In this document: piece after piece, positions 10,867 through 30,766 of the stretch
Numbering within the stretch: position 1 is the first letter of the stretch
Layout: each line of letters opens with the position of its first letter
Assembly (NCBI GenBank): GCA_951812855.1
Contig: OX638337.1
Span: 360,001 to 392,000 of the forward strand
DNA: 32,000 nt
Direction: 5' to 3'
Origin: an uncultured Lentisphaeria bacterium
GTDB taxonomy: Bacteria; Verrucomicrobiota; Lentisphaeria; JABSQK01; JAJFLO01
Program-made: the position numbers and the translations under genes
The notes under the pieces: generated by a model
What the model saw: the letters and a program-made list of their open reading frames with translations, nothing else
What the model was told of the DNA's origin: nothing
The model's database searches: none

Positions 10867-11830
10867 GCAGAAATTATTGGCGGGCAAGAATAAACTCTCG
10901 ATAAGCACTCATTTGAAACCTGCCGGCCGGCATACTCAACCAGAGAGGTAAAAATCCTTTTCAAGTCTACACGTGAGACGTGCAGCTGAACTGTAACTGC
11001 GTCGCTGCGAGGCGGGGTGGAGAGCAACAGGGGGCGAACGGCCGGTCCATAGGTAACGAACTCGACTCGTATATTGACTCTATTTCATCGAAACTTTATT
11101 CATCTTGCCGATTCTCCAACGATTATTAAACGTCGATTTGTGGAAACCTATCCATTCCAGAAGTTATTCGAGATTTACATTATGAATGATCATCCTCAAA
11201 ATGGTGCAATCATCCGGTTGAAGAATAAGTTGGAGAAACTTCTGCTGAATATTGATATGGTGATTATTACGGACTATGGCCATGCCATGATCTGAGAAAG
11301 ATATTATTGAAATGATCTGTAAAAAAGCCCCCTGTACCGCAGTAAACACGCAAGAGAATACCGGAAATCACGGATTTAATGCTGTATCCAAATATTCCCG
11401 TCCTGATTTTATCTGTATTTCAGAAAACGAGCTCCGGCTTGATGCTCGTAATAAATCCGGAAATTTGCATGAGTTGACACGTAATCTCCCGAATCAATTG
11501 AACTGTGAAAACATTGTTGTTACTCGCAGCTTACTTGGGTGTTTATGCTACAATCGTGATAACGGTTTTATTACAGCACCTGCTTTGACAAATAATTTCA
11601 AAGACCGGGCTGGGGCTGGAGAATTCACAAATTCTGATTATCTTGGCAGCATAAAAAAGATTGAAGACATAATACCACAGGAAAAATCAGGGTATCATAT
11701 TGTGAAAGAATGTGATATAAAATCAAATATCAACCGTCTGAACGGAATTGGATTTCTGGCTCCTGGGATGGATACGACATTGTTATTGGATTCCGTTGAG
11801 AATTTAGAAACACTACTTCCCGAAAATTAG
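10867..11830 (+). pseudogene. PfkB/RfaE-domain-I-like sugar kinase, decayed (in-frame stop plus frameshifts)
   Basis: The fragments lie in three frames. AEIIGGQE*TLDKH has TAA at 10891-10893 and resembles the IGDxxLDxY N-terminus. ARRGG..ANG resembles RPGGAANVA. 11074..11295 encodes PTIIKRRFV ... ITDYGHAMI*. 11312..11830 encodes NTQENTGNHGFNAVSKY ... VVTRS ... DRAGAGEF, the PfkB GAGD motif. The 11074 and 11312 ORFs join with a 1-nt shift near 11290. The 5' limit is approximate. Confidence 0.55.
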
Positions 11831-11897: not shown

Positions 11898-12421
11898 ATT
11901 GAGTTTAATCTGTGTAACAACAAAACTTTATTTTCCAACCTCCAGGGAATTGTATTTGATTTTGATGGCGTATTGACTGATAATTAATAAGGTATATGTC
12001 GATCAGTCAGGCGATGAGATGTTTTGCTGCAATCGATCCGACGGTTTGGGAATCGGAGGCACTGAAGCTAACCCGTATAAGGTTATTTGTTCTATCAACA
12101 GAAAGAAATCCTGTTGTTGGATCCCGGTGTAAAAAACTGAAAATTCAGTTGCTCCGGGGAAGTAGAGATAAGCGTACAATCATAAAAGAACTGGCTTCTG
12201 AGAAAAATTTCAATTTAAGCCGTACGCTATTTGTCGGAAATGATTTGAATGATTTTTCAGTGATGCAGGCCTGCGGATACTCTGCTGCAGACAGTCACCC
12301 GCAGATCGTGAAAATTTCAAGATTCTTACTGAAAACAAATGGGAGCCGAGGCATCGTACGCGAAATTGCTGAAGAAATTCCCGGCATTGAAATCCTGGAT
12401 ACATTACATCCCAAAACATGA
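11898..12421 (+). pseudogene. KdsC-family HAD-IIIA sugar-phosphate phosphatase, decayed
   Basis: The HAD motif I segment GIVFDFDGVLTDN (11946-11984) runs into TAA TAA (11985-11990). The expected continuation NKVYVDQSGDEMF..SDGLGI is in the +1 frame. A second shift near 12050 joins ORF 11996..12421 (STERNPV ... FVGNDLNDFSVM ... GSRGIVREIAEEI). The usual AVADA is SAADS. No canonical start codon is seen. Confidence 0.6.
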
Positions 12422-12480
12422 TAAATGGTCCGGGCAGTAACCAACCCGATTACTAATAATGACTCTGTAAAAGACATAAA

Positions 12481-13305
12481 ATGTCCTCCCATAAATTAAT
12501 CATTGAAGCCGGCAAAACCAGTAAACGATATTTTAGAGACGTTTGGGAATTTCGGGAACTATTTTATTTTCTTGCCTGGCGTGACATTCTTGTGCGATAC
12601 AAGCAAACTCTGATCGGCATCTCCTGGAGCGTGATTCGGCCGCTGCTGACAATGATCGTCTTTACAATTGTATTTGGCAGACTGGCAAGACTTCCATCAG
12701 ACGGGATTCCGTATCCAATTCTCGTATTCAGTGCTGCCCTGCCCTGGCAATTTTTCGCGTCTTCCCTGGCAGAATGCAGCAATAGCGTTATAGCGAATGC
12801 TAATATGGTTTCCAAGGTTTATTTTCCCAGAATAATCATCCCTGCAAGTGCTGTGATTGTGAGTTTTGTTGATTTCCTGATTTCAGCTGTGATTTTGGCT
12901 GCAATGATGTTTTGGTATTCATTTATACCGGATTGGAAAATTCTACTCTTACCCGTGTTTATAGTGATAGCCTTTGGTGCATCCATTGGTACCGGCCTGT
13001 TCTTATCAGCCCTCAATGTCAGATTTCGTGATTTTCGCTATATTGTTCCATTTATTGTTCAGTTTGGGCTCTATATCTCGCCGGTCGGTTTCAGCAGTAA
13101 TATCATTCCTGAACGTTGGCGTCTTCTTTATTCACTAAATCCTATGGTAGGAGTTATAGATGGATTTCGATGGGCTTTATTGGGCGGAAACATTGATATT
13201 TACTGGCAGGGTTTCGGCTTATCCATGGTATTGGTGTTTTTCCTGTTCTTCGCCGGTATCTGGTATTTTAGAAAAACAGAAAATGCTTTCGCTGATATAA
13301 TTTAA
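12481..13305 (+). CDS. wzm: ABC-2 type polysaccharide/O-antigen export permease
   Basis: 274 aa with six predicted TM segments. N-terminal signature ELFYFLAWRDILVRYKQTLIGISWSVIRPLL is typical of Wzm/TagG/KpsM permeases. It is followed 3 nt later by the ATPase gene. Confidence 0.9.
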   Translation: MSSHKLIIEAGKTSKRYFRDVWEFRELFYFLAWRDILVRYKQTLIGISWSVIRPLLTMIVFTIVFGRLARLPSDGIPYPILVFSAALPWQFFASSLAECSNSVIANANMVSKVYFPRIIIPASAVIVSFVDFLISAVILAAMMFWYSFIPDWKILLLPVFIVIAFGASIGTGLFLSALNVRFRDFRYIVPFIVQFGLYISPVGFSSNIIPERWRLLYSLNPMVGVIDGFRWALLGGNIDIYWQGFGLSMVLVFFLFFAGIWYFRKTENAFADII

Positions 13306-13308
13306 TTT

Positions 13309-14592
13309 ATGTGTACTGCCATAACAGTTGAAAATTTAAGCAAAAAATATATTATTGCCCATCAGCTTCGCGAGCGTCACCCTGCATTACGGGACGCGAT
13401 TACAAATAATGCAAAACGGGTGTTCAGGCGTTTGAGACATCCGCTGGGTGGTTTTGACACCGATGATCCTCAGCACGAGAAATTTTGGGCTCTAAAAGAT
13501 ATCAATTTTGACATCAAAAAAGGTGATCGAATTGGCGTAATCGGCCGAAATGGTGCGGGGAAATCGACATTACTCAAGATATTAAGCAGAATTACCGAAC
13601 CCTCATCCGGCCGCATTGATATTTCAGGCAGAATCGCGAGTTTACTGGAAGTGGGTACGGGATTTCACCCAGAATTAACAGGACGGGAAAATATATTCCT
13701 CAATGGTGCAGTTCTCGGCATGAAAAGGGTGGAAATTAAACGGAAATTTGATGAAATTGTTGCCTTTGCCCAAACCGATAAATTCTTAGACACACCCGTC
13801 AAGCGTTATTCAAGTGGAATGCAGGTTCGTCTTGCTTTTGCTATTGCAGCTCATCTTGAACCTGAGATTTTATTAATTGATGAAGTTTTAGCTGTCGGAG
13901 ATCTTGGGTTCCAAAAGAAATGTTTAGGAAAAATGAACGAGGTTACCAGGCATGGAAGAACCGTTTTTTTCGTTAGTCATAACATCGGAATGGTCCGGAT
14001 TTTATGCAACAAATCGATCTTATTAACATCAGGTAAAATAACACAATATGACGATACACAAGATGTTGTTGAAACATATTTATCTGTGCATAAAACGGAA
14101 ATGGGCAGTAATGGTGAGATTTGCTGGTCAAAGGAAACCCCGGGGCCCGGATGCGATGACATTCGCCTTTTATCGATACGCTTATTAAATAATGCAGGAA
14201 CCGCAGCGAGTGTCTTCACTAAAGACGAAATCATAAATATCGAAATTGCTTATGAAGTCTACCGAAAGTTGAGTGGAGTCAGAGTCCATGTAACGTTAAC
14301 GACAGAGGATGGAATCGTTGCATTCACATCAACCAATCATGGTAAGGGTACCGAAGAACTAATGCCTGGAAAATTTCGAAGCCGGGCGACGATACCCCAT
14401 GATTTCCTAAATGTAAAAACGTATTATGTCAAAGTATACTTTGATGTACCGGGCATCAGAGCACTGGTACCCGAGGATGAATATCTATTTTTTAAGTGTG
14501 ACCCCGGAACTCCAAAAGGACAATTTGTTTCTCCATCCCAGGCAGGCGTCATCGCTCCAGAATTAGGGTGGTCAAATGAATCTATAACTTAG
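13309..14592 (+). CDS. wzt: Polysaccharide ABC exporter ATP-binding protein with C-terminal glycan-binding extension
   Basis: 427 aa. Walker A GRNGAGKST, signature YSSGMQVRL, Walker B LLIDEVLAVGD. About 170 extra C-terminal residues (IRLLSIRLLNNAG ... INIEIAYEV ... VKVYF) look like the Wzt C-terminal beta-sandwich. Confidence 0.9.
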   Translation: MCTAITVENLSKKYIIAHQLRERHPALRDAITNNAKRVFRRLRHPLGGFDTDDPQHEKFWALKDINFDIKKGDRIGVIGRNGAGKSTLLKILSRITEPSSGRIDISGRIASLLEVGTGFHPELTGRENIFLNGAVLGMKRVEIKRKFDEIVAFAQTDKFLDTPVKRYSSGMQVRLAFAIAAHLEPEILLIDEVLAVGDLGFQKKCLGKMNEVTRHGRTVFFVSHNIGMVRILCNKSILLTSGKITQYDDTQDVVETYLSVHKTEMGSNGEICWSKETPGPGCDDIRLLSIRLLNNAGTAASVFTKDEIINIEIAYEVYRKLSGVRVHVTLTTEDGIVAFTSTNHGKGTEELMPGKFRSRATIPHDFLNVKTYYVKVYFDVPGIRALVPEDEYLFFKCDPGTPKGQFVSPSQAGVIAPELGWSNESIT

Positions 14593-14842
14593 AATTCAAT
14601 TAAGATGTATTCTGTTTTTCATAAATAGATTGAAGACTTCATTATTTACTGAGTATCGGACTAAAACGCCTTGTAAACCAAGCTTACAGAAACCTTGAGA
14701 TAATTGTATCTGACTGATGATTGTTCACCTATGGAAGCAGCCGTTAGAACCTATAAGAGTGATAATAAACGAATAACCATCCCCTTCTTTCTTAAAAGGA
14801 CATACTGTCTGTTTTATACGTTATTACATTTTCTAATTCGAG

Positions 14843-15787
14843 ATGCATTTGTATAACGACAGCAATTTTAAACCCTTGGCTAAACAGCGGCTGGATTATT
14901 TTCTAATCTGGGGCCACGGGCTGGACTGTAAAAAAGAAATCATTGATTTTCTTCGTGCCGAAAAGGCCTTAAATATCATTCTGTTATTTGAATATTATCC
15001 AGGAAATATTCATAAATTTGTTAAGAAAATTTATTCCCATGACTATGCACCGTTCCAACATTTAAAAGATAAAACAAGATATTTGTTAAAAACACCATCA
15101 CGGGTCATAATAATTTTAGTGAAAAACCTGGATGTATGTGAAGTACTGGTCGGTAATGGAATGTTCAGGCACATTGAATGTGAACGGATTGTTCGCGTCA
15201 AAAATAAAATACGCGATGCATTCAACCCAAGAGAAAATAATAAACGGACAGAACACCATGTTATCCATGCCTCTGATAATGAAGAACAAACTCATCGTTT
15301 ACTATTGGATATTGGCTGTAAAAACGGAATTAATGCCTTTCATCATAAACCAAATTCGCTGCTGGATTTACCGTATCATGTCAACCCGTTCCATTCATTC
15401 AGGATTCAATCCATACCTGTTTCGAAAATTCACTGTCGACTTCTCAGCCCTGAGTCAACTAAATCTGATCTTAAAGTAGATCAATGTCGACTAACAGACA
15501 GCCCGCACTGTGCCTGCCTAAACGGAGATCCGACTCGATATAAATCGTATCTGGACATGGCATCAAAGGTTCGTGAATGTGATAATCATTCTGTTGAAAA
15601 TTTTCTTCTCCTCAATAAAAACCTGAAGTACCTGGAAACGCCATATGAATCGTCATATATCCTGGTTAAATATTGCACTGAATCGAATTGTTTTTTAATT
15701 TTTGACGGTCTGCATCGAGCCGTCATACTAACTCATCAGGGATACAAGAAAATAACAGTCGCCGTCATCACCCAGGGAATATCATGA
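14843..15787 (+). CDS. Uncharacterised two-domain protein: N-terminal alpha/beta domain with NDK-like motifs plus C-terminal ParB/Srx-fold domain
   Basis: 314 aa. The C-terminus YILVKYCTESNCFLIFDGLHRAVILTHQGYKKITVAVI carries the DGxHR core of the ParB/sulfiredoxin fold, preceded by FRIQSIPVSKIH. The N-terminus has IYSHDYAPFQHL ... RVIIILVKN ... HHVIHASDNEEQ, reminiscent of the nucleoside-diphosphate-kinase pattern (by eye only). Its stop overlaps the next start (ATGA). Confidence 0.6.
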   Translation: MHLYNDSNFKPLAKQRLDYFLIWGHGLDCKKEIIDFLRAEKALNIILLFEYYPGNIHKFVKKIYSHDYAPFQHLKDKTRYLLKTPSRVIIILVKNLDVCEVLVGNGMFRHIECERIVRVKNKIRDAFNPRENNKRTEHHVIHASDNEEQTHRLLLDIGCKNGINAFHHKPNSLLDLPYHVNPFHSFRIQSIPVSKIHCRLLSPESTKSDLKVDQCRLTDSPHCACLNGDPTRYKSYLDMASKVRECDNHSVENFLLLNKNLKYLETPYESSYILVKYCTESNCFLIFDGLHRAVILTHQGYKKITVAVITQGIS

Positions 15788-16479
15788 ATAAAACACTGTT
15801 GCTGAATGACCTGGATTTAAACCAGTTTTTCTATGCAATCCAGGATATCTCCTATGTCATTGTCAGACGAAGCAATCCGGAAAAGTGGCCAGGTTATTTC
15901 CAGGGAGAAGACATTGATATATTTTGCTATGACAAGGCAGCAGTCGGCCGTAACCTTCTGGGAATTGCAAACATATATGTCAATCAGGGTTTTGATATCG
16001 AGTCAACTGATCATGACAACGGTATGCAAACTCACATCGATTTCTTTAAAGGCGGACAATTACAATTCAGATTTGACCTCTATGGTCGTCTGCCACGTTT
16101 CAAAAAGGTATGTATTAAAGAACATTTATTTCTAAGCGTTATTGAAAACGCACACCCTTTAGAATACCAGTGGCAAGAAGAAAACTATCCACTTTATATC
16201 CCCTCATCAGCCGATGATTTATTACTGCGGTATATCGAATATGTTGAGTACTTTGAACAGCGTCCGGATAAAATAAAACATCTGGACTATATAATGTCGT
16301 CGATTTCAGACATTCCCGGAAGATTAGGTTTTATCGAAAAACTTCATCAATACACTGACCTTCCTAAATGCATTGCCTATATTCCGGAAGAAGAAGAAAA
16401 AGCAAAACATTATGCACAGAGTTTACGTTATCATTTTAAGATGATCGTAAACGAATTGATACGCCGTATCAAACCATGA
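15784..16479 (+). CDS. Uncharacterised nucleotidyltransferase-fold (Pol-beta-like, NTP_transf_5-like) protein
   Basis: 231 aa. GYFQGEDIDIFCYD supplies a DxD carboxylate pair and THIDFF a third acidic strand, followed by a helical C-terminal half. It shares 4-nt ATGA overlaps with both neighbours. Confidence 0.55.
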   Translation: MNKTLLLNDLDLNQFFYAIQDISYVIVRRSNPEKWPGYFQGEDIDIFCYDKAAVGRNLLGIANIYVNQGFDIESTDHDNGMQTHIDFFKGGQLQFRFDLYGRLPRFKKVCIKEHLFLSVIENAHPLEYQWQEENYPLYIPSSADDLLLRYIEYVEYFEQRPDKIKHLDYIMSSISDIPGRLGFIEKLHQYTDLPKCIAYIPEEEEKAKHYAQSLRYHFKMIVNELIRRIKP

Positions 16480-17369
16480 TCGTCGTAAAATTAATCGGAG
16501 GTTTAGGAAATCAGCTTTTCCAATATGCATTAGGCAGACACCTTGCTGAAAAACATCAAACACCTGTTAAACTGGATATTTCAGCGTTTAATTCTCAACA
16601 ATTAAGAAGCTATGCATTAACAGCATTTAATATTCACGCACCGTTAGCTTCTGACGATGAAATCAATAACATCCTGGGTGCCCCTCCAGGTATCGGGAAG
16701 CGATTCACAGCAAAATTGTTAAAACGAGATCTTACCGATTATTGGCCAACTTATGTCAAAGAAAAAAAATTCTGTTTTAATCCGGAAATTTTAAAGTTGC
16801 CCAATGATATTTATTTAGACGGTTACTGGCAAAGTGAAAAATATTTTGAGGATATCTCATCGATACTCAGAAAGGAATTCACACTAAATGCTGAGCAGTC
16901 TGCTGAAAATGAGAAAACTCAGTCACATATTCTCTCTTCAGAATCAGTTAGTGTACATGCTCGACGCTGTGATTTTGTCAGTGATGAATCTGTAAATCGA
17001 ATACATGGAATTTGTGACCTGAATTACTACGTAAAGGCCTTTGACTACATAAAAGGCATCGTGCAAAATCCCCGGTTTTTCATTTTTAGCGATGACATTC
17101 CCTGGTGTCGCTCTAATCTTGATTTTGAACATCAACTCACCTTCGTTGATCACAATGGTGCAGATAATAGTCATGACGATCTGCAATTGATGAAACAATG
17201 CAAACATCACATCATAGCAAACAGTTCATTCTCATGGTGGTCAGCCTGGTTAAATTCAAATCCTGATAAACTCGTAATCGCTCCACAGCGATGGGTGAAT
17301 TCTGACTATTACGATACAAAAGACTTAATTCCTGACAATTGGATAAAATTGAACATTGAATCTGCCTGA
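16476..17369 (+). CDS. GT11 family alpha-1,2-fucosyltransferase
   Basis: 297 aa. N-terminal LIGGLGNQLFQYALGRHLA, motif I VSVHARRCDF (HxRRxD), and C-terminal IANSSFSWWSAWLN are all GT11 hallmarks. Confidence 0.85.
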   Translation: MIVVKLIGGLGNQLFQYALGRHLAEKHQTPVKLDISAFNSQQLRSYALTAFNIHAPLASDDEINNILGAPPGIGKRFTAKLLKRDLTDYWPTYVKEKKFCFNPEILKLPNDIYLDGYWQSEKYFEDISSILRKEFTLNAEQSAENEKTQSHILSSESVSVHARRCDFVSDESVNRIHGICDLNYYVKAFDYIKGIVQNPRFFIFSDDIPWCRSNLDFEHQLTFVDHNGADNSHDDLQLMKQCKHHIIANSSFSWWSAWLNSNPDKLVIAPQRWVNSDYYDTKDLIPDNWIKLNIESA

Positions 17370-20327: not shown

Positions 20328-21241
20328 TCATACTTTAATTTTACACAATTTCCGGATAGTGTATGCAGCAGCAGCCAATAATACGTTCATGTCATCGCCT
20401 TTAATACCTTTCAGGAAATTTCCAGACAATCTGAAATCTTCTTTGAGACGTCCTGTTACCGGTTCAATTGCTGCCCGTCGACGCAATTGCCTTTTGAGTT
20501 TCTGTTTTTGATACTCTGTCAGTTTTCTGCGAAGCTTATCCGCATTGATAATTTGAGTAGACTCGATTACCTTTTTACCTCGCTAACCGTGATCAATGAT
20601 GGCTGATCCTGCCCGGACTCCTCGACTCGTTTCCATGTCTGTTAATACTTCAGGCAATGTCTGTGCGACGTAACAATTCGTTTCAAAATTCAGTACACTG
20701 ACAATGATCCCTGATGTCTTTGTCATCGCAATCGAAACCTTAGAACCCGATTCATGTTTTTTATAATCTTTACCCTTGCTTATACAGTAAACATCACGTT
20801 CATGCAGACTGTAAATTTTATTGCTGTGATTACGCTTCTGCAATACTACTTCTTTGAAACCGTTAAGATCATCTTTGTAAATCCAATAAGCTTCCGTAAT
20901 TTTCAGACAGTCTTCAGCAATCTTACGATGACGTCTGGGTATCTGCAGGAAACGTGATGTCATTTCTCTTGAACCGTCGTGTCAACTACAACTTCATCTT
21001 CAAGCACCGGACGGCCATGAAGATGAACTGTCAGCTGAAAAATCTTCTTTACTTCTTCTCTGCCTGTCCGATGACAAAAATGAACCCGGTCTGATGGATC
21101 ACAGGGAAAATTCCACAGACACTCTGATTCACCACTGAGATTTTGAACCCAGCCTTCAACAACTGTCTCATCTCCATGGACTGCACATTTTTTATACTGT
21201 CTTGCCCCCATCGGTATAATTGATGGCCGGGGCAGTTTCTT
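20328..21241 (-). mobile_element. IS5-family transposase remnant (5'-truncated, nonsense and frameshift mutations)
   Basis: Minus-strand fragments lie in several frames. They include KLPRPSIIPMGARQYKKCAVHGDETVVEGWVQN ... FPCDPSDRVHF ... VVVDTTVQEK (InsH-type N domain and start of the DDE domain), NDITFPAD in another frame, and KIYSLHERDVYCISKGKDYKKHESGSKVSIAMT ... AIIDHG*RG. That last stop is an in-frame TAG at 20583-20585 where DRGYRG is expected. The tail is RRAAIEPVTGRLKEDFRLSGNFLKGIKGDDMNVLLAAAAYTIRKL*. No terminal inverted repeats were found. Confidence 0.75.
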
Positions 21242-28306: not shown

Positions 28307-29140
28307 TTACCAGACGACATTTACAAAGGGAAGAACCTTGCATTTACTTTTCCGAGTTGCAATATTCAATAACCCGATTTGAAGTCCCTGCAAATCACCG
28401 GTTTTATTTAATATACCGAACTGAAACCCGACGACGGAATCTGCTATATTTATCAATCCCCACTGATTCCCGGTAGCGTTAACCGTATAACTGATTAAGC
28501 CAATTTGATTACCTGTGAAGTCCCCGCCGACACAACTGGCAACACCAATTTGGGTACCATTTAAATTGCCGGCGATTCCAGAAACAGCACCAAGTTGTAT
28601 CCCTTTCATATCCCCCCCATTCATAGAAAATACACCAAACTGGCAACCTGATAAATTCCCTTTGTTTGATGCATATAGAAAACCCGATTGGCGGCCGGTG
28701 ATATCACCATCATTGATAGAAATTAAACCTATCTGATGACCATCAATATCACCACCGTTAAACGCTATCAGTCCGCCAGCCTGAACGCCGCCTCTAATGT
28801 CCAGTTTATTGGAAGCAAACAGCAATCCTATTTGCTGGCCGTCAACGCTCCCGTTACATAAATTAACCAATCCTTCACTATGCCCCTGAATGCTTGTTTC
28901 AGTCTGATTAAAAAGACCTAAATCCAATCCACTGACACTATTATTACTACCCCAAATTAAATTTAAACGTACTCCTTTCACAGATGTATTCTGATCCTTT
29001 TGAATGGGTATCGACAAATGAGAGAATATCGATAGTTGTACAGGTATTATAACCTCGCTGGCAAAAACAGTTGATGTTATACTCAACGTTGTAATAATCC
29101 CCACGATACCCAGTCTCAAAACACATTTTCTAACATTCAT
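28307..29140 (-). CDS. Secreted repeat protein with about 14 tandem 15-16-residue GxQxG repeats
   Basis: 277 aa. Signal peptide (MNVRKCVLRLGIVGIITTLSITSTVFAS), then repeats such as DGQQIGLLFASNKLDI, DGHQIGLISINDGDI, NGTQIGVASCVGGDF, TGNQWGLINIADSV and QGLQIGLLNIA. It ends in LPFVNVVW. Confidence 0.75.
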   Translation of the reverse strand: MNVRKCVLRLGIVGIITTLSITSTVFASEVIIPVQLSIFSHLSIPIQKDQNTSVKGVRLNLIWGSNNSVSGLDLGLFNQTETSIQGHSEGLVNLCNGSVDGQQIGLLFASNKLDIRGGVQAGGLIAFNGGDIDGHQIGLISINDGDITGRQSGFLYASNKGNLSGCQFGVFSMNGGDMKGIQLGAVSGIAGNLNGTQIGVASCVGGDFTGNQIGLISYTVNATGNQWGLINIADSVVGFQFGILNKTGDLQGLQIGLLNIATRKSKCKVLPFVNVVW

Positions 29141-29347: not shown

Positions 29348-30766
29348 TTAGAAGTCAATTGAAAGTTCAGCAAGAAAAATATTTGCATGTCCACCACCAT
29401 CGAGTCCCCATGCTGAAGGAACTGTATCTGCAAACGTCTGATATTCCCAGTTTAGTGTAAGCATGGTATTTTCATATAGGTTTGTGGACAGGCTTAATCC
29501 CCAAATATCATGAATACCGCCATCTGCTAAAACTCGGCTGTCGCTTACACTCTCACTTGAAAAATCATCAAGATCAATATTAGCTTCATACTTTACAGCT
29601 ACTACATATTCCCTTTCAGCAACAGGACAAGTCAGACCCAACTCAAGTGTATATGCCTGAGGTTTTACGTCGGTGTCATTTTTGAAACCAATATCCTCTC
29701 CAGTCAAACCATTCGGATTTCTGTCAAGATCATTGATTGCACCAACATATTCTGCACTGAACCAAACGGGTCCCATACTGAGAACAGAATAAAGATTTAT
29801 TGCACCATTATCATCATCAGAATAATTGTCCGGAAAACGAGCCCCTGCATCAAGTCCAGCAACTGAATCAGTATTCTGAGCTTGATAAATATTGTTGATA
29901 TAGCTAATCCCAAACCTCATATTCCGATCTTCATTATCAGTCTCAATTGATAAAGATGCTCCCCAGGTATCGATTTTATTATCGACAGCACCACCACCTT
30001 TCGCAGCTCCACGAACTTTGTCGTTCTGACCGTTGAATACAAAAAGACTAAAATCCACCATGTCACTCTTCATACCCAAAACAGCACCGGTATCACGGGT
30101 TTCATATAATTGTCTGGTTAAGGTGTCATTGATAAAATTTCCAAATTCATTTATATTACCAAAAGGCATGTATTGTTTACCTAAAATACTATATATTCCA
30201 CGATCGCCGCCTATAAAAACATACGCTTCATCGACATAAAGTGTATCCTCTTTTTGGTCAGTATCTGCACCACCAGGACCGGCGAATGAACTGTTTCTAT
30301 AATCCTCGTACTGGAGTCCGATAAATCCGCTAACACTTTCGGCGATATCAATATCAAGGTTTAACCTTAGCTCATCCATAATTATATCGGAAGTGTCTTC
30401 CTTATTTGCCTTTGGATGGGTATCGATATCAGAGAAAAATCCGACAATATCGATATTACCGCTGATACTGACAAAATCATAATTGTCTTTTATTGCACTG
30501 AATCCTTCCAGAAATGCCATGCGTTCTTTGTTTTCCAACGCATCAAAATCAGTGTTCTTTCTGATATCAGCCGGAAGTGTCGAAACAATACGATCTGTTT
30601 CGACAGCTTTTTCTTCCTGAGCCTGTAACCTATTTTCAAGTTCTGACAATTTCTGTTTCAATAACTTAACCTCTTCGCGTAATAGTGAATTTTCACTGTC
30701 ATTACTCCACGTTACAGGTGTAATAATTGAAACGATTAAACATAATGTAAATATTTTTTTGACCAT
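29348..30766 (-). CDS. Outer-membrane beta-barrel porin with N-terminal coiled coil
   Basis: 472 aa. Signal peptide (MVKKIFTLCLIVSIITPVTWS), a heptad-like LLREEVKLLKQKLSELENRLQAQEEK, then alternating-polarity strands rich in G/Y/D/N. The C-terminal beta-signal is LAELSIDF, ending in Phe. The architecture resembles DcaP/LbtU-type coiled-coil porins. Confidence 0.7.
   Translation of the reverse strand: MVKKIFTLCLIVSIITPVTWSNDSENSLLREEVKLLKQKLSELENRLQAQEEKAVETDRIVSTLPADIRKNTDFDALENKERMAFLEGFSAIKDNYDFVSISGNIDIVGFFSDIDTHPKANKEDTSDIIMDELRLNLDIDIAESVSGFIGLQYEDYRNSSFAGPGGADTDQKEDTLYVDEAYVFIGGDRGIYSILGKQYMPFGNINEFGNFINDTLTRQLYETRDTGAVLGMKSDMVDFSLFVFNGQNDKVRGAAKGGGAVDNKIDTWGASLSIETDNEDRNMRFGISYINNIYQAQNTDSVAGLDAGARFPDNYSDDDNGAINLYSVLSMGPVWFSAEYVGAINDLDRNPNGLTGEDIGFKNDTDVKPQAYTLELGLTCPVAEREYVVAVKYEANIDLDDFSSESVSDSRVLADGGIHDIWGLSLSTNLYENTMLTLNWEYQTFADTVPSAWGLDGGGHANIFLAELSIDF

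Follow-up and report, generated by a model that had tools for sequence, protein, structure and literature searches.

Two adjacent genes, here called A and B, lie in a 32,000-nucleotide stretch of the genome of an uncultured Lentisphaeria bacterium (contig OX638337.1, positions 360,001 to 392,000; the whole stretch is referred to as the window). Gene A (14843..15787, plus strand) encodes a two-domain protein of 314 aa, in which a predicted nucleoside-diphosphate-kinase (NDK) fold is followed by a predicted ParB/sulfiredoxin (Srx) fold, and gene B (15784..16479, plus strand) encodes a 231-aa protein modelled as a Pol-beta-fold nucleotidyltransferase (NTase). We propose that A and B make up a single conserved, unannotated enzyme system of glycan assembly, of which each is an obligate half. 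Its mechanism and role in this locus are set out below, and we assign this reading as a whole a probability of roughly 40%. The reading is carried by the observation that three folds which handle nucleotides, with conserved residues of catalytic type, are obligately linked together, and that these folds are linked, physically as well as genetically, to glycosyltransferases and to enzymes adding methyl, sulfate or phospho-alcohol groups. The more general statement that A and B constitute a glycan-modifying phosphotransfer pair has, in our estimation, a slightly better than even chance of being right.

Linkage of A and B to each other and to glycan genes

A word-indexed search retrieved 57 homologues of A and 206 of B, all of them unnamed or annotated as "hypothetical" and devoid of Pfam domains. 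An exhaustive search with an A profile extended the family to 938 clusters (50% identity) at E <= 1e-3, of which 278 were recovered at E <= 1e-30. Searches of Pfam, NCBIfam, PADLOC and PDB sequences with single A and B proteins returned nothing useful, and the view of a first-pass annotation of this DNA that both families are uncharacterised holds, as neither has a Pfam or NCBIfam match. No published description of the A-B pair was found in the literature searched, and a 2025 survey of ParB-fold fusions mentions neither an NDK fusion nor a polysaccharide context (PMC12704722). Residues invariant in the A family (alignment A1) are Y64, H73, K77, K120, R124, N128, H139, H142, D145, Y233, Y236, D288 and G289, and those invariant in 49 B sequences are D43, D45, D86, D98, R149, E152, K163 and H166. 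Given the many homologues and the many invariant polar residues in both families, A and B are real genes and not chance open reading frames (ORFs).

Linkage was assessed in 32 non-redundant loci, comprising the window, loci from identity look-ups, 23 reference-genome loci, three loci seeded with B and two contigs from a viral collection. The reference-genome loci are labelled as delta-proteobacteria, Desulfatiglandales, Geobacter/Geomonas, SAR324 cluster, Anaerolineae, Fusobacteriaceae, four lineages of the Candidate Phyla Radiation (CPR), Bacteroidales, Carboxylicivirga, Kiritimatiellia, Binatia, Aeromonas and Alphaproteobacteria. In 31/31 testable loci, B either lies directly 3' of A or is fused to it. 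Of the proteins representing the 150 best clusters, 33 combine both modules; B precedes A in 22 of them and follows it in 11. The two viral-collection contigs provide further arrangements. One (L033, 6777-8876) carries a single ORF of ~995 aa with the architecture B-FkbM-A, while on the other, which is 344 kb long (L034, 6929-8951), A is split into an ORF for the ParB/Srx half, followed by a GT11 gene and then by the NDK-like half fused to B. Fusions in both orders together with this split are Rosetta-stone signs, which indicate that the three domains form a functional unit.

All loci examined are polysaccharide or glycan clusters. The conserved third partner is a glycosyltransferase (GT) of family GT11, the alpha-1,2-fucosyltransferase family, which is encoded directly 3' of B in 12/31 loci and within 10 kb in 20/32. 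A 4-nt overlap was present at six of the nine B-GT11 junctions measured, and 12/16 linked GT11s keep the HxRRxD motif of alpha-1,2-fucosyltransferases. The GT11 gene of the window (16476..17369, plus strand; PF01531, E 1.5e-38) encodes HARRCD at residue 161, which fits this motif, and direct sequence reading places ATGA stop/start overlaps on the plus strand at 15784..15787 (A/B) and at 16476..16479 (B/GT11). The chaining of the two ORFs to each other and to GT11, their sizes and their coordinates had thus been described exactly by the first-pass annotation, and the peptides that it quoted are all found where it placed them, namely IYSHDYAPFQHL (residues 63-74), RVIIILVKN (87-95), HHVIHASDNEEQ (138-149) and FLIFDGLHRAVILTHQGYKKITVAVI (284-309) in A, and GEDIDIF (41-47) and THIDFF (83-88) in B. 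At the other loci the genes 3' of B are likewise mostly transferases (GT2, Glyco_trans_1_2, GT47, LicD, and GT10 after the fusion in locus L006). The gene 5' of A encodes Wzt in five loci, an FkbM-type O-methyltransferase in five and a sulfotransferase in at least two to three, or else a GT. The sulfotransferase gene lies directly 5' of A in L002 and L003, and one gene off in L004. One of the FkbM proteins encoded 5' of A weakly resembles V. cholerae RfbT.

The same kinds of enzymes recur as fusion partners of A-B, which include GT2, GT4, GT8, GT11, GT32, FkbM and other methyltransferases, Stf0 sulfotransferase, LicD and TPR modules. Examples of such architectures are B-FkbM-A-GT2-TPR, LicD-B-A-GT2, A-FkbM-GT4 and B-TPR-A-Stf0 sulfotransferase (protein P0184), and others read TPR-B-A-methyltransferase-GT32-FkbM and TPR-GT8-methyltransferase-B-A. 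TPR repeats are present in 10/43 fusion proteins, and FkbM methyltransferases are commoner as fused partners than the sulfotransferase. In 9/43 fusions a conserved domain of ~270 aa with no Pfam match directly follows A (P0227 516-785, P0208 743-1012, P0244 706-980 and P0214 954-1225; also P0246, P0197, P0204, P0198 and P0273), and in L019 it forms a separate gene (12412-13491, minus strand). Its motifs are FSKDRAMQL, LVDD, YDFGYPLE.SSS, NPNTLE and CHQEM, of which LVDD suggests a GT-A-like transferase, possibly another unannotated partner of the module.

The A family reaches many bacterial phyla as well as giant-virus-like contigs; the A-B module has a patchy distribution across phyla, and its carriers include reduced CPR genomes. 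No match to the module was found among annotated mobile elements (72,556 plasmids and 50,697 phage records). A viral fold library returned "glycosyltransferases" of Catovirus and Yasminevirus as well as a protein of Mimivirus LCMiAC01. These giant-virus proteins, together with the two viral-collection contigs, suggest that giant viruses probably carry the module. Locus L006 is also virus-like in appearance, with GIY-YIG/NUMOD3, GT10 and RXYLT1-like genes. A sister assembly of the window encodes A and B copies that are 98-99% identical to those described here.

Predicted folds and conserved residues

The AlphaFold model of A has a predicted local distance difference test (pLDDT) score of 92.7 and a predicted template-modelling score (pTM) of 0.88. 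Residues ~15-160 (14885..15322, plus strand) are assigned to an NDK-like domain by Foldseek, by the viral structure library BFVD and by the order of secondary-structure elements. The best 50 PDB matches of the model in Foldseek are all NDKs, aligned over ~150 columns with probability 1.00, E-values from 5.5e-5 and target-normalised TM-scores of 0.5-0.68, and NDKs also come first among the BFVD matches. In the model the elements follow each other as b-a-b-a-a-b-a-loop-b-a, which is the order seen in NDK. The resemblance to NDK that had been noticed by eye in this half of A is thus borne out at the level of predicted structure.

The predicted catalytic strand is H139-V-I-H142-A-S-D145 (15257..15277, plus strand), in which H139, H142 and D145 are invariant. 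Alignment by hhalign sets HHVIHASDNEEQ against RNIIHGSDSVESAE, the RNIIHGSD strand of NDK, and because the two strands align, H142 appears as the counterpart of the NDK phospho-histidine His118. The position of NDK N115 is occupied by a histidine, H139. Guided by the model, we propose by eye the further candidate equivalences Y64~Y52, R124~R88, N128-P129~TNP motif and R135~R105, in addition to H139~N115. By sequence profile, the A protein of the window has no Pfam match at E <= 1 and hence none to the NDK family (PF00334), and only a single member of 44 A proteins matches NDK (E 0.086).

The C-terminal half, residues ~185-311 (15395..15775, plus strand), is predicted by its domain profile and by BFVD to adopt a ParB/Srx fold resembling SbnI. 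The C-domain profile matched the SbnI structures 5uje (E 4.7e-6), 5ujd (5e-5) and 6nr6 (6.5e-5) with the DG(L/V)HR motif aligned; the profile of the whole protein reached E 1.2e-3, and many ParB/Sulfiredoxin proteins of BFVD matched A. The earlier assignment of a ParB/Srx-type core to this half is therefore confirmed. The putative nucleotide-phosphate-binding motif of this fold is D288-G-L-H291-R292 (15704..15718, plus strand), whose sequence DGLHR aligns with DGVHR of SbnI. In alignment A1, D288 and G289 do not vary and H291 and R292 are conserved to >= 90%; the G, H and R of DGxHR are invariant in the locus-derived alignment A6. A has no match to Pfam ParBc, and only weak PFIN matches occurred, in 4/44 members. 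SbnI and SerK are small-molecule kinases of the ParB/Srx fold, which can thus phosphorylate the hydroxyls of small molecules (PMC5120207, PMC12704722).

For B (AlphaFold pLDDT 90.8), the top Foldseek match is the MenT1 toxin (8an4, E 2.5e-4), accompanied by an NTase-like fungal protein (5uvd), LnuA (4fo1), the poly(A) polymerases of mimivirus and other giant viruses, terminal uridylyltransferases and Pol lambda/mu. The predicted metal-binding DxD of the NTase core is D43-I-D45 (15910..15918, plus strand), invariant in 49 sequences and located on a predicted strand (42-48), and the likewise invariant D86 of HIDFF (16039..16041, plus strand), on predicted strand 82-89, would provide the third carboxylate. 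As to the hG[GS] motif, which in this fold lies on a helix-turn upstream of the DxD, B proteins have a G-S (G-E in the window copy) that directly abuts the DxD, as in GSDIDIF, and no separate upstream helix-turn is predicted. The window copy of B has no match to NTP_transf_2, and 9/49 family members match it below the Pfam gathering threshold (best E 1e-3); a B profile searched against PDB sequences gave spurious MEF2 matches only. The carboxylate arrangement of a Pol-beta-type NTase, which the first-pass annotation had recognised in B, agrees with the Foldseek matches to MenT1, LnuA and poly(A) polymerases and with the weak NTP_transf_2 matches. B thus looks, on model and motifs, like an active Pol-beta NTase with a helical substrate domain. 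Residues 202-229 (16387..16470, plus strand) form a predicted C-terminal helix, which is a cationic amphipathic tail across the family: the last 35 aa have a median net charge of +8 and a maximal hydrophobic moment of 0.58, compared with a median of 0.23 for the protein body. Such a tail would fit a location of B at the membrane surface.

Proposed mechanism, transporter setting and possible capping

Our preferred reading is that the A-B pair sits at the cytoplasmic face of the membrane together with the glycosyltransferases, where the growing lipid-linked glycan would receive from it a non-carbohydrate substituent based on phosphate. A would be the part responsible for nucleoside triphosphate (NTP)-dependent phosphorylation, using an SbnI-like ATP/CTP site and possibly a phospho-His142 relay; H142 and, with it, H139, D145, R124, N128, R135 and Y64 are kept in the NDK-fold domain. 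B would then carry out nucleotidyl transfer, or a LicD-like phosphodiester transfer, at the site phosphorylated by A. In the cluster of the window the target would probably be the residue added by the coupled GT11 enzyme or one next to it. As candidate chemistry, a phosphate-based decoration of the polymer is probable. At loci with an ABC transporter, a long-form Wzt and neither a methyltransferase nor a WbdD-like kinase, this modification would be the best candidate for a chain-terminating cap, whereas at Wzx-type loci the module would decorate repeat units instead.

The window belongs to the former type. The ABC-2 permease of the glycan exporter is encoded by wzm (12481..13305, plus strand; PF01061 ABC2_membrane, E 4.7e-19), followed by wzt (13309..14592, plus strand; ABC_tran, E 1.8e-23), which encodes a long-form ATPase of 427 aa. 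Residues 284-378 of this Wzt match Wzt_C with E 5.8e-7 and 30.0 bits. The C-terminal carbohydrate-binding domain that had been ascribed to it is therefore likely but borderline, the score being just under the Pfam cutoff of 30.4 bits. Between wzt and A lies a spacer of 250 bp (14593..14842), in which a simple scan detected no promoter-like or terminator-like sites. Downstream of B the order is GT11, GT2, GT2 and a GT1/GT4-type gene. Among the window ORFs scanned, none showed a methyltransferase or protein-kinase domain, in keeping with the earlier remark that a WbdD-like kinase or methyltransferase is not visible, and neither A nor B contains a Pfam domain of the WbdD-type kinase or of an S-adenosylmethionine (SAM) methyltransferase. 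Since the long-form wzt is followed, after the spacer, by A and B, and the locus offers no alternative terminator candidate, the pair is the best cap candidate here.

Across the loci, wzm/wzt was found within 10 kb of A-B in 11/30. Each of these 11 loci has a long-form wzt (412-474 aa) beside A-B, on the same strand and 0-5 genes upstream, a position that we take to be the place of wbdD in E. coli O9a. Where Wzt is encoded directly next to A-B, it matches Wzt_C in four of five cases. Where genes intervene between wzt and A, they encode a non-carbohydrate modifier such as an O-methyltransferase, a sulfotransferase or, in L030, a set for 2-aminoethylphosphonate (AEP) with LicD. The AEP set of L030 (1829-7092) is complete and is positioned between wzt and A-B-GT11; it consists of a phosphoenolpyruvate mutase-NTP transferase fusion, a thiamine pyrophosphate decarboxylase, an aminotransferase, a second NTP transferase and LicD. 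L030 also has a second wzm/wzt pair with Wzt_C downstream. O-polysaccharide terminators described so far use kinase modules, non-homologous between serotypes, and methyltransferases to make methyl-phosphate caps (PMC3482155, PMC11231755).

Several findings weigh against the proposed scheme. With respect to A, the lysine equivalent to NDK K12 is apparently replaced by WGHG, as judged by eye. A profile of the N-terminal domain searched against PDB sequences had no match at E <= 10, and when the A profile or the N-terminal domain alone was compared with one or six NDK sequences in hhalign, only the catalytic strand was covered (16 residues, low probability). Because of these two results we rejected membership of the NDK family by sequence, so that the proposed relationship to NDK rests on the predicted fold and one short motif. 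As to B, no family member matches LicD (PF04991) even at E <= 10, and the tail of the window copy is weaker than that of the family, with a charge of +2 and a moment of 0.48. Concerning the transporter, about two thirds of the loci have no wzm/wzt within 10 kb, a Wzx flippase gene adjoins A in L002 and L031, and in P0179 and P0186 (759 and 760 aa) an apparent Wzx-type flippase (Polysacc_synt) forms an N-terminal part fused to A, either by true fusion or by gene-calling read-through. A crude, weak heptad scan detected no coiled-coil ruler in 43 long fusion proteins, and the tightest partner of A-B is the GT11 gene rather than the transporter.

Since about two thirds of the loci have no wzm/wzt within 10 kb and some have Wzx beside A, capping is not the general function of the pair. 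The module would be a general glycan-decoration device, which may act as a terminator in ABC-type loci, and not a dedicated Wzt-linked capping module. The idea of the first-pass annotation that A and B form a capping module therefore survives in part: co-occurrence with long-form wzt, 0-5 genes upstream, is seen at every one of the 11 wzm/wzt loci, and it does not extend to the remainder, where Wzx in some cases, the missing ruler and the closer tie to GT11 point away from capping. That A-B makes a chain-terminating cap in the window is doubtful in our view. Still less probable is the full version, namely that an NDK-fold phospho-His domain, a ParB/Srx kinase domain and a Pol-beta NTase together install an undescribed phosphate-linked cap, nucleotidyl or phosphodiester, that is read by the long-form Wzt for export. 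If true, this would be the first demonstration of carbohydrate-directed activity for enzymes of the NDK and ParB/Srx folds, and would reveal a glycan end-modifying module common to more than 10 bacterial phyla and giant viruses.

Elsewhere in the window, two short ORFs just 5' of wzm (11312-11830 and 11996-12421) match Pfam families only by their C-terminal parts. One matches PfkB sugar kinase (profile positions 182-258 of 302) and the other the HAD phosphatase family Hydrolase_3 (178-255 of 255; KdsC-like by eye), and both seem to be what is left of a sugar-activation operon that has decayed. Two small minus-strand ORFs at 20583-21211 (126 and 83 aa), with no Pfam match on record, break the otherwise co-directional run of glycosyltransferase genes and may mark an insertion or a junction of two sub-clusters. 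At the edge of the cluster, ORFs of 277 and 472 aa (28307-29140 and 29348-30766, both minus strand) have no Pfam match at E <= 0.01. The window lies on a contig of ~1.95 Mb from a deep-branching bacterium, whose RF1, encoded at 675-1763, shows at most 61% identity to named organisms among its best 120 matches. These are mostly from Lentisphaerota, Victivallales and Kiritimatiellota, the nearest being Victivallales, Lentisphaeria and Kiritimatiellota (58-61%), with one match to Candidatus Pacebacteria, so that the host is placed only loosely near Lentisphaerota/Kiritimatiellota.

Alternative explanations and known systems

The most serious alternative is that the module activates a donor: the ParB/Srx domain would phosphorylate a free sugar or alcohol, the NDK-like domain would regenerate NTP, and B would join the phosphorylated compound to NTP, giving a nucleotide-activated donor for the neighbouring transferase, which is GT11 here. 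A kinase together with a nucleotidyltransferase is the classical precursor-activation logic of glycan clusters. Moreover, the gene after B almost always encodes a transferase (GT11, GT10, GT2, Glyco_trans_1_2, GT47 or LicD), the GDP-binding HxRRxD motif is kept in the 12/16 linked GT11s mentioned above, and the module is present in reduced CPR genomes. However, we know of no Pol-beta-fold NTases that make nucleoside-diphosphate sugars. The cationic amphipathic tail of B suggests a membrane location, and giant, polymer-acting proteins contain the module along with methyltransferases, sulfotransferases and TPR. The L031 cluster, which contains A-B-GT11, also holds a complete de novo pathway for GDP-fucose (gmd, fcl, NUDIX, manC), gmd lies directly 5' of A in L014 by position, and short-chain dehydrogenase/reductase and dehydratase genes are common. 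GDP-fucose salvage, a variant raised by the linkage to GT11 and GT10, was likewise down-weighted because de novo GDP-fucose genes are present in the same clusters. Altogether, we regard donor activation as unlikely, albeit as the alternative to be taken most seriously.

Lower still stands a non-catalytic role, in which A-B would serve as an NTP-dependent switch or scaffold that regulates a polymerase complex or chain length. The TPR repeats in 10/43 fusions would be compatible with this, as would the pTM of A (0.88), which indicates a rigid two-domain body in the model, and ParB-fold proteins are often CTP/ATP-dependent switches (PMC12704722). On the other hand, the catalytic-type residues are invariant, including the two histidines and the aspartate of the NDK strand, DGxHR, and the three NTase carboxylates as well as D98, and the crude scan of the 43 fusions found no ruler-like coiled coil; we therefore deem such a role improbable.

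Very unlikely is a self-contained unit resembling a synthase of 3'-phosphoadenosine-5'-phosphosulfate (PAPS), in which B would adenylylate sulfate and A would phosphorylate the product for the adjacent sulfotransferase. A sulfotransferase is indeed found next to A (L002, L003), one gene off (L004) or fused (P0184), but most loci including the window have none, which is the reason for down-weighting this possibility; L003 has a canonical kinase for adenosine 5'-phosphosulfate (APS), and FkbM methyltransferases prevail over sulfotransferase as fused partner. A role outside glycan synthesis, as toxin-antitoxin, defence or mobile-element cargo, for which MenT1 as top match of B and the patchy distribution suggestive of horizontal transfer might be invoked, was rejected as exceedingly improbable, because PADLOC as well as the plasmid and phage records gave no match and all loci examined are polysaccharide clusters with A-B fused to glycosyltransferases.

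Returning to the reading of A-B as a glycan-decorating phosphotransfer system, its interest lies in the fact that neither Pfam nor NCBIfam captures either family, despite 938 A clusters. Fusion of three nucleotide-using folds to GTs, O-methyltransferases and sulfotransferases would point to an undescribed non-carbohydrate decoration of glycans, and decorations of this type decide chain length, export, antigenicity and recognition by phages or the immune system. The pair also offers a testable terminator candidate for ABC-transporter loci that have no WbdD-like enzyme, and it would add to the functions known for the NDK and ParB/Srx folds.

Compared with its structural relatives, A shares with NDK/NME proteins the predicted fold, the order of elements and the histidine strand (HVIHASD versus NIIHGSD), together with candidate equivalents for Y52, R88, the TNP motif, R105 and N115. 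It differs in having no detectable sequence homology past the 16-residue strand, WGHG in place of K12, a shortened Kpn loop and a fused ParB/Srx domain, and its sequence gives no sign of nucleoside-diphosphate kinase activity. The C-terminal domain has the fold of the free-serine kinases SbnI and SerK with DG(V/L)HR aligned, but the alignment is limited to a core of ~65 residues, A adds the NDK-like domain and does not have the C-terminal regulatory part of SbnI, and the context is glycan assembly rather than cysteine or siderophore metabolism. B is predicted to share the Pol-beta NTase fold, DxD and a third carboxylate with LicD/fukutin/FKRP and with antibiotic O-nucleotidyltransferases (LnuA, ANT). 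These enzymes transfer phospho-alcohols or nucleoside monophosphate to sugar hydroxyls, which is the type of reaction proposed for B; LicD enzymes are members of the NTase superfamily that move phospho-alcohols onto glycans (PMC11666461), and LicD is fused to or near the A-B module in some relatives. In contrast to them, B belongs to neither the LicD nor the NTP_transf_2 family of Pfam, has a distinct helical C-terminal domain and is obligately paired with A.

With the terminators WbdD and K. pneumoniae O7 ORF6, the module has in common its place just after wzm and a long-form wzt (as in the window), a predicted phosphotransfer chemistry and the frequent adjacency or fusion to O-methyltransferase and polymerising GT modules. 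Unlike them, it comprises neither a protein-kinase-like nor an AmiN-like kinase fold, and it has neither its own SAM methyltransferase nor a coiled-coil ruler. An NTase-fold partner is present in addition, and the module is not confined to ABC-type loci, being found also at Wzx-type loci and where no transporter is close by. Taken together, the module works most like WbdD, the O7-ORF6 terminators and the LicD-type decorators and is a member of none of these groups, and the predicted combination of folds would be unprecedented among phosphotransfer enzymes that decorate or terminate glycans.

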